Shown here piece after piece: positions 796 to 4,213 of a DNA stretch of 4,213 bases (positions are counted from its first letter, which is position 1; each line of letters opens with the position of its first letter). The stretch is taken from IMG/VR virus record IMGVR_UViG_2529292882_000010. One strand, given 5' to 3'. Source of the DNA: a virus. Lineage: Duplodnaviria > Heunggongvirae > Uroviricota > Caudoviricetes. Below the pieces are notes generated by a model. The model made no database searches. It was given only the letters and a program-made list of their open reading frames with translations, and was not told the DNA's origin. Position numbers and translations under genes: made by a program.

Positions 796-1002
796 TTAGC
801 CGTTAGATTTTGCCGAACTGGAAAGTGCCTGTTTAAACTCACTGAAGCTGAGAGCTTCTTCGCCTTCGGCAAGGCCTTCGAAGTATTCTTCGTAAGCCTT
901 TTCCATGATTGCGTCGAAATCCATGTTGACCTCATTTCCCCTTAACGCCGGGGTAGCGGAACAAAAACCTGCTGCATAGTTAAAGTTGAACCCTGCCGTC
1001 AT
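796..1002 (-). CDS. small acidic hypothetical protein (68 aa from ATG at 1002; 42 aa if initiated at internal ATG at 924)
   Basis: Seen in sequence: two candidate starts. ATG at 1002 has GAGG about 10 nt upstream. Internal ATG (complement of 922-924) has GAGG at 5 nt spacing, arguably the better RBS. The C-terminal 42 aa are strongly acidic. No arginine-rich N-terminus, so not an N-type antiterminator. Function unknown. Confidence 0.45.
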   Translation of the reverse strand: MTAGFNFNYAAGFCSATPALRGNEVNMDFDAIMEKAYEEYFEGLAEGEEALSFSEFKQALSSSAKSNG

Positions 1003-1189: not shown

Positions 1190-1609
1190 TTATGATGCGT
1201 TTTGTGCTTTCTTTTTACGGATTTCTTCGTAGATCATATTGTAATACTGTTTTTTCTCTTCAAGAGTTTTTAATAAGTTATCCGCTTCACTTTCTGGCAG
1301 TTCGTCTAAGAGATCTAAAAAAATACGTTGTCGTGGCGTTAGAACCCTTGTTTCATAATTGGAGGCTGTGTTCGTTGATGATGAAACGATACCATCCATC
1401 CATCCTCGGGGTAACCCAAAGGACTCTTCGATAATCTCCACCATATCATCAGCGATCCGTTTTTTTCCCTTTTTCCCCTCTGGGTACAACATTCTTGATA
1501 CATAAGAAGGCTCGCGACCGATTTTTCTGGCTACGTTAACCGCTTTACCATCGCATTTCTCATCACGAATTTTGATGAGTTGCTGTCGTCTAAATTCATA
1601 TTTGTCCAT
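1190..1609 (-). CDS. prophage immunity repressor, short Cro/CI-type HTH protein without S24 peptidase domain (RacR-like by position)
   Basis: Seen in sequence: 139-aa ORF divergent from a cro-like gene across a 100-bp operator-bearing intergenic region. The N-terminal segment KAVNVARKIGREPSYVSRMLY fits a helix-turn-helix, and the C-terminal region is charged and coiled-coil-like. At 139 aa it is too short to carry a LexA/CI-type autocleavage domain. No Shine-Dalgarno upstream of the ATG. Confidence 0.8.
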   Translation of the reverse strand: MDKYEFRRQQLIKIRDEKCDGKAVNVARKIGREPSYVSRMLYPEGKKGKKRIADDMVEIIEESFGLPRGWMDGIVSSSTNTASNYETRVLTPRQRIFLDLLDELPESEADNLLKTLEEKKQYYNMIYEEIRKKKAQNAS

Positions 1610-2423: not shown

Positions 2424-3371
2424 ATGAGCAGCAAGCTTCATGGTCTTGTCTGGGAAGGGTGTGCCTTCACCGGCATGATCTTATCCAGGGTGGCAGTAAT
2501 GGCTCGCCTTGCAGATTACAGCAATGACGAAGGTGTGTCATGGCCTGCAGTGGAGACCATTCGTCGTCAGATTGGGGCAAAGAGTGAATCAACGGTTAAA
2601 GCTGCGATAGCGGAACTGGAAAAGAACGGCTGGCTGACGAAGGAGGAACGTAAGGTCGGTGGGCGTAATGAAAGCAATATCTACCGTCTTAATGTGGAAA
2701 AACTCGAAGCAGCAGCAGCGGCGGCGCGTGAGGCATATAAACCGAAAAGAAAAATTAGCCAGGCAAAAAATGACCCGTCAAATATTGCCCCCTCAACGGT
2801 TGACCCCTCAAATTTTGATGGATCAACCATTGATAAAAAACAGCCGGATAGGGGGGCGATGGTTGGCCCCGATCCGTCAGTATTAAAACCTGATCCGTCA
2901 GATAAAAGATCTTTTCGTCCGGAAGCTTCGCAACCGGACTCGCAGACGGCTGAACAGGATTTTTTAACCCGACACCCTGACGCTGTTGTGTTCAGTGCGA
3001 AAAAACGCCAGTGGGGTAGCCAGGAAGATTTAGCGTGTGCGCAGTGGATCTGGGGACGAATCGTGAGTCTTTACGAACAGGCTGCCAGCGATGATGGCGA
3101 GATCACGCGACCGAAAGCCCCCAACTGGACCGCATGGGCTAATGACGTGCGCACAATGCGGATGCTGGATGGCAGAACTCACAGACAAATTTGCGAAATG
3201 TTTGGTCGGGTACAGCGGGATCCATTCTGGGTAAAAAACGTCATGAGTCCGTCAAAGCTTCGTGAAAAATGGGATGAGCTGGTTATTCGTCTGGGGCGTT
3301 CGCCTGTACAGCGTTGCGTGAATCACATTTCTGAACCGGATACCGAAATTCCGCCGGGCTTCAGGGGGTAA
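2424..3371 (+). CDS. phage replication initiation protein (N-terminal winged-helix DNA-binding domain, repeat-bearing linker, conserved Trp-rich C-terminal domain)
   Basis: Seen in sequence: 315-aa ORF, ATG at 2424 with GGAG at 6 nt spacing. The N-terminal region (LADYSNDEGVSWPAVETIRRQIGAKSESTVKAAIAELEKNGWL) matches the pattern of HTH-type replication initiator N-domains. The central linker carries four DPS repeats encoded by direct DNA repeats. The C-terminal region is Trp-rich and resembles the conserved C-terminal domain seen on phage replisome-organiser proteins. Domain names are from memory. Confidence 0.8.
   Translation: MSSKLHGLVWEGCAFTGMILSRVAVMARLADYSNDEGVSWPAVETIRRQIGAKSESTVKAAIAELEKNGWLTKEERKVGGRNESNIYRLNVEKLEAAAAAAREAYKPKRKISQAKNDPSNIAPSTVDPSNFDGSTIDKKQPDRGAMVGPDPSVLKPDPSDKRSFRPEASQPDSQTAEQDFLTRHPDAVVFSAKKRQWGSQEDLACAQWIWGRIVSLYEQAASDDGEITRPKAPNWTAWANDVRTMRMLDGRTHRQICEMFGRVQRDPFWVKNVMSPSKLREKWDELVIRLGRSPVQRCVNHISEPDTEIPPGFRG
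2771..2915 (+). repeat. iteron array inside the initiator gene: candidate phage origin of replication
   Basis: Seen in sequence: four direct repeats of TGAYCCNTCA at 2771-2780, 2801-2810, 2870-2879 (CGATCCGTCA) and 2891-2900, with a degenerate copy near 2818-2828. Spacings are about 30, 70 and 20 bp. Followed by the AT-rich palindrome AAAAGATCTTTT (2904-2915). Four GATC sites fall within about 90 bp (2821, 2871, 2892, 2908). Established parallel: the lambda origin lies inside gene O as iterons plus an AT-rich segment. Confidence 0.6.
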
Positions 3372-3391
3372 GTGTTTATTTCAGCTCATGA

Positions 3392-3407
3392 GGTAATTTT
3401 CAGGAGG
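3392..3407 (+). promoter_or_regulatory. copy 1 of repeated RBS-containing junction module GGTAATTTTCAGGAGG
   Basis: Seen in sequence: the 16-mer at 3392-3407 is identical to 3809-3824. It contains AGGAGG immediately upstream of the TTG start at 3410, only 2 nt away. Confidence 0.6.
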
Positions 3408-3409
3408 AC

Positions 3410-3835
3410 TTGTGGCAAAAGTATTTACACAAGAAGAGCGGGAAAAAAATTAAGGGGCAGATTGTTGAACTTGTACGTCTGAGCGGTCGCGAGACGTTAC
3501 GGCAACTGGAAGCGAAAACAGGTGCGACAAGATATCTGATGAGTGTTCTCGCCAGAGAGCTGGTTGCCAGTGGCGATGTATACAATTCTGGCTACGGGTT
3601 ATTTCCGTCTGAACAGGCTCGTAAGGACTGGCAAAACGCCCGCAAAAAACTATCGAGGGCAAAGGCGAAGAAACCGGTTGTGGTTGATCCGGACCTTATC
3701 TGGTCATTACCAGACGGAGAAATACGCCGCTACGACAGGAGCCAGAACATAATCTGTCGCGAGTGCCGGAAGAGTGAGGTTATGCAGCGAGTGCTGGCGT
3801 TTTATCAGGGTAATTTTCAGGAGGTGATGGCGTGA
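3410..3835 (+). CDS. hypothetical phage protein (141 aa) with a predicted winged-helix-like N-terminal segment
   Basis: Seen in sequence: the only open frame here. It must start at TTG 3410, because there is no in-frame ATG or GTG before residue 44 and the N-terminal segment (IVELVRLSGRETLRQLEAKTGATRYLMSVLARELV) looks like a real HTH or winged-helix fold. The basic middle and C-terminal CxxC are noted. The stop TGA overlaps the next start as GTGA. Family not recognised. Confidence 0.65.
   Translation: MWQKYLHKKSGKKIKGQIVELVRLSGRETLRQLEAKTGATRYLMSVLARELVASGDVYNSGYGLFPSEQARKDWQNARKKLSRAKAKKPVVVDPDLIWSLPDGEIRRYDRSQNIICRECRKSEVMQRVLAFYQGNFQEVMA
3809..3824 (+). promoter_or_regulatory. copy 2 of repeated RBS-containing junction module GGTAATTTTCAGGAGG
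   Basis: Seen in sequence: identical 16-mer at the 3' end of CDS 3410..3835, where it encodes GNFQE. AGGAGG (3819-3824) lies 7 nt upstream of the GTG start at 3832. Confidence 0.65.
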
Positions 3836-4137
3836 GGGTGAGAGTCTATATCGCCGGTCCAATGACCGGGTATAAAAATTTCAACCGTGAGGCGTTCCAC
3901 AATGCGGAAGAGGAACTGAAACGGGAAGGGCATACAGTCTTAAACCCGGCAGTACTTCCGGACGGGCTGACACAGCCACACTACATGGATATTTGCATGG
4001 CAATGATTCGTTGTGTGGATGCGATTTACATGCTGAAAGGCTGGCAGCGGTCAGCAGGTGCTAAGGCAGAACTGGCACTGGCGGAGAAGCTGGGGCATGC
4101 AGTTATTTTTCAGGAGGCAACCAGTGAGCAACATTAA
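3832..4137 (+). CDS. DUF4406-family protein (nucleoside 2-deoxyribosyltransferase-like fold)
   Basis: Seen in sequence: 101-aa ORF with GTG start overlapping the upstream stop (GTGA). The N-terminal motif VYIAGPMTG, then NPA, then GWQRSAGAKAE match my recollection of the DUF4406 family common in enterobacterial prophages. Family name from memory. Confidence 0.75.
   Translation: MRVRVYIAGPMTGYKNFNREAFHNAEEELKREGHTVLNPAVLPDGLTQPHYMDICMAMIRCVDAIYMLKGWQRSAGAKAELALAEKLGHAVIFQEATSEQH
4102..4117 (+). promoter_or_regulatory. copy 3 (variant) of the junction module: GTTATTTTTCAGGAGG
   Basis: Seen in sequence: TTTTCAGGAGG at 4107-4117 inside the 3' end of the DUF4406 gene, where it encodes IFQEA. AGGAGG lies 6 nt upstream of GTG at 4124. 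Confidence 0.6.
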
Positions 4138-4213
4138 TTACCAGGCACTGCGAATGGCGGCAGAAAATGCAACCCCTGGCGAATGGTGTTCTGATGATTA
4201 CTATGGGGTAATT
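4124..4213 (+). CDS. partial CDS (5' end only, runs off the window); possibly an Ead/Ea22-like phage protein
   Basis: Seen in sequence: GTG at 4124 with AGGAGG at 6 nt spacing, open to the window end, translating VSNINYQALRMAAENATPGEWCSDDYYGVI. An in-frame ATG at 4154 is an alternative start. The QALR..AAE..ATPGEW pattern recalls N-termini of Ea22-like prophage proteins, but this is weakly remembered. It is not in the supplied ORF track because it is truncated. Confidence 0.4.
   Translation, partial: MSNINYQALRMAAENATPGEWCSDDYYGVI

Follow-up and report, generated by a model that had tools for sequence, protein, structure and literature searches.

We analysed a 4,213-base stretch of DNA from IMG/VR virus record IMGVR_UViG_2529292882_000010 (hereafter the window), the content of which is that of the early-right region of a lambdoid prophage of the Rac/CP-933-like kind. 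Its central gene encodes a lambda-O-like replication initiator of 315 residues (2424-3371, plus strand; PHROG 391 and Pfam HTH_36). Behind the initiator, on the same strand, lie genes for a 141-residue winged-helix protein of the DUF977/Ren family, also annotated LygF (3410-3835; PF06163, PHROG 142), and for a 101-residue DUF4406 protein (3832-4137; PF14359, PHROG 355). The original prediction, made from the sequence alone, had noted that no helicase loader or helicase gene follows the initiator. Our searches bear this out, and Pfam and PHROG confirm the positions and family assignments that it gave to the open reading frames (ORFs). After position 3371, no loader or helicase signal was found in any ORF of the window on either strand with the Pfam, NCBIfam and PHROGs profiles.

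The initiator aligns over its entire length (residues 1-315) to positions 1-298 of PHROG 391, 'replication initiation O-like' (E = 3.5e-112), and comprises an N-terminal winged helix, an iteron-encoded linker, a helical C-terminal domain (C-domain) and a flexible tail of the DnaT type. The winged helix is an HTH_36 domain (PF13730; residues 25-71, positions 2496-2636, plus strand) with an E-value of 5.7e-8, above the curated cut-off, and is presumed to be the iteron-binding part of the protein. It is the sole N-terminal match in Pfam, where no Phage_rep_O domain was found at E ≤ 0.1; in phages HannyBb and mEp460, a different N-domain is joined to the same C-domain. The iterons, four copies of GAYCCSTCAR on the plus strand (2772-2781, 2802-2811, 2871-2880 and 2892-2901), lie within the initiator gene and encode the repeated 'DPS' of the linker, to which the DPSK repeats in the initiator of Shigella phage SfII are equivalent. 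The count comes from a pattern search, with four matches against 0.06 expected and none of 200 shuffles reaching four; a general repeat search showed two of the four. This cluster is a candidate replication origin and probably works as one. A DnaA-dependent origin is unsupported, with a single match to the DnaA-box pattern TTWTNCACA against 0.43 expected.

The helical C-domain (2904-3299, plus strand) is a homolog of the C-domain of lambda O and is related to DnaD-like and replisome-organizer domains. By tblastn, residues 155-270 of lambda O match positions 2904-3287 (initiator residues ~161-288) with 37.5% identity over 128 residues (E = 1.6e-23). In lambda, O makes contact with the loader P through its C-domain. 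The domain of the window also matches PHROG 2514/1701, 'DnaD-like helicase loader', and its core recurs in DnaD-like and organizer proteins of Firmicutes phages (Bacillus, Lactobacillus). A profile built on it retrieved 6033 cluster representatives at E ≤ 0.001. The AlphaFold2 (AF2) model of the C-domain fragment is all-helical over fragment residues 26-116, with a predicted local distance difference test score (pLDDT) of 62.7.

Beyond this domain, the protein ends in a tail (...VNHISEPDTEIPPGFRG; 3309-3368, plus strand) of which the last 20 residues match only the extreme C-terminus of DnaT in the Protein Data Bank (PDB) and NCBIfam. By phmmer, the tail (residues 295-315) matches chains of PDB entries 2ru8, 6aep and 9zbt, and within NCBIfam it matches positions 160-179 of NF002770. 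By blastp, 14 of the 20 residues are identical to those of DnaT (70% over 20 residues), with IPPGFRG as the terminal stretch. The likeness is confined to this peptide: NF002770 scored 16.7 bits against a cut-off of 201, short of full DnaT family membership, and no similarity between initiator and DnaT was detectable beyond the tail. The tail is predicted to be disordered (AF2 pLDDT below 50), which fits the expectation for a short linear docking motif. The YdaU protein of the Rac prophage ends in the same tail (...PDSAIPPGFRG), and annotators sometimes name such initiators 'Primosomal protein I'.

The exact initiator protein sequence occurs on 20 contigs, two of which, L413 and L414, carry the full 4,213-base window exactly. 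L413 has a run of N precisely at the window end; L414 is gap-free. After the DUF4406 gene, L414 continues with Ead/Ea22, two small ORFs, DUF4014 and DUF551, followed by an HTH gene and ParE/ParD on the opposite strand, DUF968, RusA and the Q antiterminator, and then by a methyltransferase, holins and an endolysin. None of the genes in these 10 kb, which take in Q and the lysis genes, belongs to a Pfam family of loaders or helicases. The suggestion that a loader might lie beyond the window is therefore refuted, this exact prophage having been sequenced through its lysis genes. Loader Pfam families were likewise missing from the 10 kb on either side in the exact prophage. On the five contigs examined, tblastn with two phage DnaC-like proteins, lambda P, and the DnaC and DnaB of E. 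coli as queries gave no hit out to 10 kb in both directions. L414 retains an integrase, an intact 826-residue exonuclease, Q and the lysis genes.

Close relatives of this module do carry a loader. In E. coli 720632 (L002), an initiator 96.8% identical to that of the window is followed 6 nt later by a gene for a 248-residue DnaC-like ATPase, itself 50% identical to E. coli DnaC and matching PHROG 50 at E = 1.6e-84, which served as a positive control; DUF1627, DUF977 and DUF4406 genes come next. The same initiator thus exists both with and without a loader. Both arrangements are common. A 611-nt probe for the loaderless junction, spanning the initiator 3' end, the spacer and the DUF977 5' end, was matched over 80% or more of its length in 1868 of the 5426 complete E. 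coli genomes, about a third, and an equivalent probe for the junction of initiator and DnaC-like gene was matched in 1325 of the 5426. In IMG/VR, the 80 loci listed whose C-domain matches that of the window at 94% identity or more divide into 43 with a DnaC-like gene at +10 nt and 37 that are loaderless. All 37 of the latter have DUF977 directly next, at +41 nt in 35 and within ~50 nt in 36. Both N-domain types are found in both loader states among these 80 loci, and three distinct 141-residue C-domain sequences are 100% identical across the two states, the commonest occurring in 11 loaderless and 14 loader-bearing loci; such identical C-domains are interchangeable between the states. The premise that a loader normally follows a lambdoid initiator is overstated for this family, about half of the relatives being loaderless.

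The loaderless state also occurs in complete phages. HannyBb, mEp460_ev081 and Shigella phage SfII have complete genomes that combine the window-type C-domain and tail with no loader, and tblastn found no homolog of DnaC, DnaB or P anywhere in the three; HannyBb and mEp460_ev081 were deposited as phage isolates. Given a junction this common and complete phages that lack a loader, the absence of the gene is neither a sequencing accident nor, in general, the sign of a dead prophage.

A conserved 38-nt spacer (3372-3409, plus strand) separates the stop of the initiator from the start of DUF977 and marks the loaderless junction; it is found also in the loaderless sister prophage L001 and in HannyBb and mEp460, and in relatives the next gene begins at ~+41 nt. 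Towards its 3' end the spacer reads ATGAGGTAATTTTCAGGAGGACTTGTGGC, much like the stretch that joins the dnaC-like 3' end to DUF977 in a loader-bearing locus, L019 (GTGAAGTAATTT-CAGGAGGACTTGTGGC). In addition, a motif A(A/T)TTTTCAGGAGG stands at three successive gene boundaries of the window (3395-3407, 3812-3824 and 4105-4117; three occurrences against 0.03 expected); each copy spans the stop region of the preceding gene and also contains the ribosome-binding site of the following one. This motif may provide short homology for swapping gene cassettes, the loader cassette included, and, judged from their placement, recombination between boundary motifs could plausibly remove or add the loader.

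We surveyed ORFs ending in D-x-x-I-P-x-G-F-R-G-stop and sought DnaC, P and DnaB in the 3.5 kb downstream of each. The counts are among the matches listed, and many loci are closely related, so that they do not represent independent events. With one genome taken per species, dnaC comes next to the DnaT ortholog in 60 of 62 cases, no dnaC-like gene being found in the other two. Tail-bearing ORFs of at least 100 residues other than DnaT, again with one genome per species (n = 22), all belong to Enterobacterales and represent several different initiator families; 13 are followed by a DnaC-type gene, nine by none of the three and none by P or DnaB. On viral contigs, 110 tail-bearing ORFs of at least 100 residues were listed: 57 had a DnaC-type gene downstream, 48 had none, five lay on contigs that were too short and P or DnaB occurred in none. 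When both surveys are pooled, a DnaC-like gene comes next in 70 of 127 informative cases, no recognised loader is found in 57 and P or DnaB in 0. Clustering after removal of the tail yields three large initiator groups, two of which split about evenly into loader-bearing and loaderless members.

Two controls with a different tail behave differently. Of 77 O C-domains with a lambda tail among the matches listed, 76 have P next and none has DnaC, and a Phage_lambda_P gene comes after a Serratia protein that ends in ...HWNTAEAWENTL and shares 56% C-domain identity with the initiator of the window. Tail and loader thus covary in surveys and controls alike, and from this partition the helical C-domain looks generic, with the terminal peptide tracking the type of loader. 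Among the 110 best cluster representatives of the C-domain, nine have an IPxGFRG terminus; the remaining C-termini show recurring short aromatic motifs after a variable linker, namely D(F/W)xNTDW(A/I)xG, as in lambda O, and HWNSxEAWExx(I/L). As far as sequence comparison can tell, these motif classes suggest a general 'tail code' for partner choice. The survey also turned up three viral-contig ORFs that combine the DnaT signature WQQKLAR with the tail and have no homolog of DnaC, P or DnaB within 3.5 kb downstream; these may be phage-borne DnaT-like genes.

The 141-residue protein encoded next to the initiator is a member of PF06163 (E = 7e-27; 94.5 bits against a cut-off of 22.1) and of PHROG 142, 'Ren-like exclusion protein' (E = 4e-43), a family that lambda Ren itself matches at E = 1.6e-41. 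Residues 64-92 of lambda Ren align with the C-terminal CRECRxSxxMxRVLAxY motif of the protein at 48% identity. Its AF2 model, obtained from a shallow alignment in which the 120 homologs listed are all at least 88% identical, has a pLDDT of ~90 for residues 11-80 and matches only GntR/MarR/IclR winged helices, with weak E-values; the same fold was assigned to DUF977 from HHpred/COMPASS (Kinch 2009, PMC2686095). Profile searches of 3410-3835 against loader families returned no loader domain: the ORF has no loader or helicase match in Pfam, NCBIfam, PHROGs or PDB sequences (the PDB sequence search was empty), no AAA+ ATPase domain or DnaC/IstB-like profile was found, and neither profile nor sequence searches detected lambda P (PF06992) there or downstream. 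The DUF977 gene occupies the position of ren in lambda and is also found downstream of the DnaC-like gene in loader-bearing modules, and in other loaderless modules its place is taken by a PerC-like activator, a methyltransferase, ParB or DUF1627. As a Ren-family protein present with or without a loader, the DUF977 protein is not a substitute loader. The original prediction had offered it as a possible replication accessory factor, a role that is not supported in view of its Ren family, its ren position, its occurrence in both loader states and its absence from SfII. Nor is the DUF4406 protein a replication loader; it matches PF14359 (E = 1.1e-37; 128.7 bits against a cut-off of 22) and PHROG 355, 'nucleoside 2-deoxyribosyltransferase' (E = 5e-48).

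The DUF977 gene of the window bears a frameshift. A homopolymer of seven A (A7; 3443-3449), against six in the eight related loci checked, shifts its 5' frame. From the ancestral GTG start at 3412 the gene reads VAKVFTQEEREKN and then meets a stop at 3451-3453; the 141-residue ORF survives via an out-of-frame TTG at 3410, and its first 12 residues differ. The coordinates predicted for this ORF are right, and the reading from TTG 3410 exists only through the extra A. Both exact-window assemblies, L413 and L414, have the A7 tract, and in L414 the DUF977 gene is left uncalled. One further candidate for a DUF977 protein, YdaW of K-12, was rejected as a truncated DUF1627 (L008 5753-6313) that matches residues 1-151 of the L002 DUF1627 protein at 95% identity. 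In a separate locus, L134 of Citrobacter sp. Cu233, a lambda-O-type C-domain with an IPEGFRG tail is directly followed by a DUF1627-like gene, with no DnaC-like gene; this loaderless arrangement indicates that DUF1627 is not strictly tied to a loader.

On balance, we favour the reading that the initiator recruits host DnaB-DnaC directly and that a phage loader is optional, and absent here. The window would then hold a lambda-type, theta-origin replication module in which a phage-encoded loader can be dispensed with. The N-terminal winged helix would bind the four iterons within its own gene, the helical C-domain would organise the origin complex and the flexible tail (...SEPDTEIPPGFRG), the same peptide as the end of host DnaT, would recruit host DnaB6-DnaC6 directly, so that the initiator would act as an origin-specific DnaT. 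The phage DnaC-like gene, where present, would give the phage its own, dispensable version of a partner that is always on hand in the Enterobacterales host. We infer the function of the tail as the recruiting element from gene-neighbourhood covariation; the host DnaB-DnaC as its putative partner, and the subunit that it would contact, are deduced likewise. Among the three options that the original prediction had listed, direct recruitment of host helicase machinery through the C-domain is the best supported, on comparative evidence: the DnaT tail, the indifference of identical C-domains to the loader and the power of the tail type to predict the loader class all favour it.

Several points weigh against this reading. 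The contact between the tail and DnaC or DnaB is a proposal from comparative evidence, and one paper notes that no direct DnaC-DnaT interaction has been demonstrated (PMC11087952). A 2026 cryo-electron microscopy (cryo-EM) paper on the preprimosome proposes the N-domain of DnaT, not the tail, as a possible recruiter of DnaB-DnaC (PMC13377028). DopC, which combines HTH_36 with the DnaT C-terminal motif, pairs with DopE, a lambda-P-like protein (PMC5509034). The relatedness of the surveyed loci, already mentioned, tempers the counts, and tblastn and Pfam are blind to an unknown kind of loader among the small unannotated ORFs downstream. Lastly, the A7 frameshift indicates some decay of this prophage, whose own replication competence is unproven. 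More tentatively, and with less confidence than we place in direct recruitment, we propose that IPxGFRG is a portable docking motif for DnaB6-DnaC6 and the missing link in DnaT function, that about half of its carriers, many Enterobacterales phage initiators from several unrelated families, have dropped the loader because the motif gives them access to host DnaC, and that a wider tail code (IPxGFRG, NTDWxxG, HWNSxEAWE) could set the loader class.

A close rival of direct recruitment, although unlikely in its own right, is that the tail mimics the contact of DnaT with PriA or PriB, host DnaT then bringing in DnaB-DnaC through the PriA-dependent primosome. The tail is, after all, DnaT's own C-terminus; in a preprimosome structure the C-domain of DnaT docks on PriA via a hydrophobic interface, and the DnaT-primosome literature surveyed gives residues 154-179 no role. 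PriA is, to our knowledge, universal in bacteria, yet the genuine tail-bearers among the matches listed all belong to Enterobacterales, the clade that has both DnaC and DnaT. Nor would a PriA contact predict that 70 of the 127 informative tail-bearers have a DnaC-like gene beside them and that none has P or DnaB.

The remaining explanations dispense with direct recruitment of host DnaB-DnaC, and we judge each of them improbable. The loaderless state might stem from a deletion that left a replication-defective, decaying prophage. The likeness of the spacer 3' part to the junction of dnaC-like 3' end and DUF977 does suggest an ancestral deletion, the DUF977 gene of the window is frameshifted and the recE-like exonuclease is split in L413. 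A decaying remnant fits poorly, however, with the presence of the junction in the phage-isolate genomes HannyBb and mEp460_ev081, with the loaderless SfII, with 1868 genomes in which the junction comes with intact ORFs, with an initiator C-domain and tail that are undecayed and identical to those of loader-bearing copies, or with L414, where the 826-residue exonuclease, integrase, Q and lysis genes are intact. Rather less probable still is that a co-resident lambdoid prophage provides a DnaC-like loader in trans, for example YdaV of Rac. Prophage genes of this kind are common, as the 1325 of 5426 genomes with the loader junction attest, K-12 carries ydaV and identical C-domains work with such loaders; but the early genes of a resident prophage are repressed, a variant that free phages carry too and that a third of E. 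coli genomes contain would be relying on a fragile strategy, and host dnaC, 50% identical to the phage loaders, is always present. We give least credence to the notion that DUF977 or another small downstream protein is an unrecognised loader or accessory factor. Some non-AAA+ loaders, such as lambda P and DciA, are small proteins; the DUF977 gene always lies near the replication genes, and several downstream ORFs have no known function. The protein nevertheless belongs to the Ren family, lambda Ren is dispensable for replication and the model matches winged-helix regulators only. DUF977 moreover coexists with the DnaC-like gene, is missing from other loaderless modules and is frameshifted here.

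We class the module as a lambda O-P variant and as a loaderless sister of the ydaU-ydaV and L002 modules, and loaderless genomes such as SfII were already public. With lambda it shares the gene order cro, cII-like, initiator, (loader), ren-like, iterons inside the initiator gene (as ori-lambda lies within O), a homologous C-domain and a Ren-family gene after the replication genes. It differs in lacking P, in having an HTH_36 N-domain where lambda has Phage_rep_O, in ending with IPPGFRG instead of ...NTDWIYGVDL and in the loader of its relatives, which is DnaC-like (AAA+) and not P. The Rac ydaU-ydaV and L002 modules have YdaS/YdaT-like regulators in common with the window, and in L002 DUF977 and DUF4406 also lie downstream; between initiator and DUF977, however, these modules carry a DnaC-like ATPase gene and usually also DUF1627, whereas the window has the 38-nt spacer. 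YdaU of Rac further differs in its DUF1376 N-domain and its C-domain. The E. coli dnaT-dnaC operon has a like tail of ~20 residues, at the end of DnaT, and, as in over half of the tail-bearing phage initiators, a DnaC-type gene directly downstream; DnaT is recruited by PriA and PriB, whereas the initiator of the window would be origin-specific through its winged helix and iterons.

The O-family protein of SfII (KC736978) shares 59% identity with the initiator of the window from end to end; N-domain, DPS-repeat linker and C-domain are of the same kind, and its tail is ...QIPAGFRG. SfII has no loader or helicase in its whole 41.5-kb genome; it differs in having a PerC-like activator and dam next to the initiator, not DUF977 and DUF4406. 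The DopC-DopE pair of Cellvibrionales and Oceanospirillales (Brezellec 2017, PMC5509034) resembles the initiator of the window in the combination of HTH_36 with the DnaT C-terminal motif. Compared by description, DopC lacks the lambda-O C-domain and the iterons, is chromosomal (domesticated) and is paired with the P-like DopE. The 'Eru' replication types of Stx phages were also considered and gave no match, as all of them carry helicases.

How the PriA-PriB-DnaT preprimosome recruits DnaB-DnaC was stated to be unknown in papers of 2014, 2024 and 2026 (PMC4132743, PMC11087952, PMC13377028), and the comparative pattern described here points to a testable peptide of 7-13 residues for this step. 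A DnaT-type tail is found on several unrelated phage initiator families, always with a DnaC-type loader or none and never with P or DnaB, among the matches listed. An initiator without a loader is a normal and widespread state of lambdoid prophages, found in roughly one in three complete E. coli genomes; it bears on annotation, on judgements of prophage viability and on the predicted host dependence of temperate phages. In the searchable literature we found nothing on phage initiators with DnaT tails, no paper on a loader being optional for one and the same initiator and no paper on a DnaT-type tail partitioning with DnaC-type loaders.

Upstream of the initiator are a 139-residue repressor gene (1190-1609, minus strand; PHROG 5736), a YdaS/Cro-like gene (1710-1991) and a YdaT/CII-like gene (1975-2400). 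The repressor has no Pfam match and no peptidase S24 domain, and shows a weak DicA-like match at its C-terminus. Sister prophages with the same replication genes (L001, L416) have a LexA-family (S24) repressor at this position, which indicates a swap of the immunity region. At its downstream end the window cuts an Ead/Ea22-like gene after the first 30 codons (4124-4213, plus strand; from translation). L413 has a weak 30-residue Ead_Ea22 call at this end, and the next gene called in L414 is a 180-residue Ead_Ea22 with its start ~100 nt further downstream than 4124. PADLOC returned nothing meaningful.

Outside the window, the two assemblies that share it exactly differ in their RecE-like exonuclease, which is split into pieces of 378 and 224 residues in L413 (4749-6942) and is a single 826-residue gene in L414 (4369-6849). 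In the loaderless sister L001, a homolog of the DNA polymerase III theta subunit (15787-16032) is encoded between the replication genes and Q. Within the window, the 12-bp palindrome TACCCATGGGTA occurs twice without mismatch, at 1108-1119 and 1133-1144, with a spacing of 25 bp (0.00 expected). A T-run follows, and the pair falls between the 3' end of the repressor gene and a 68-residue ORF (796-1002, minus strand). The two copies could serve as paired operators or as a terminator for both directions.

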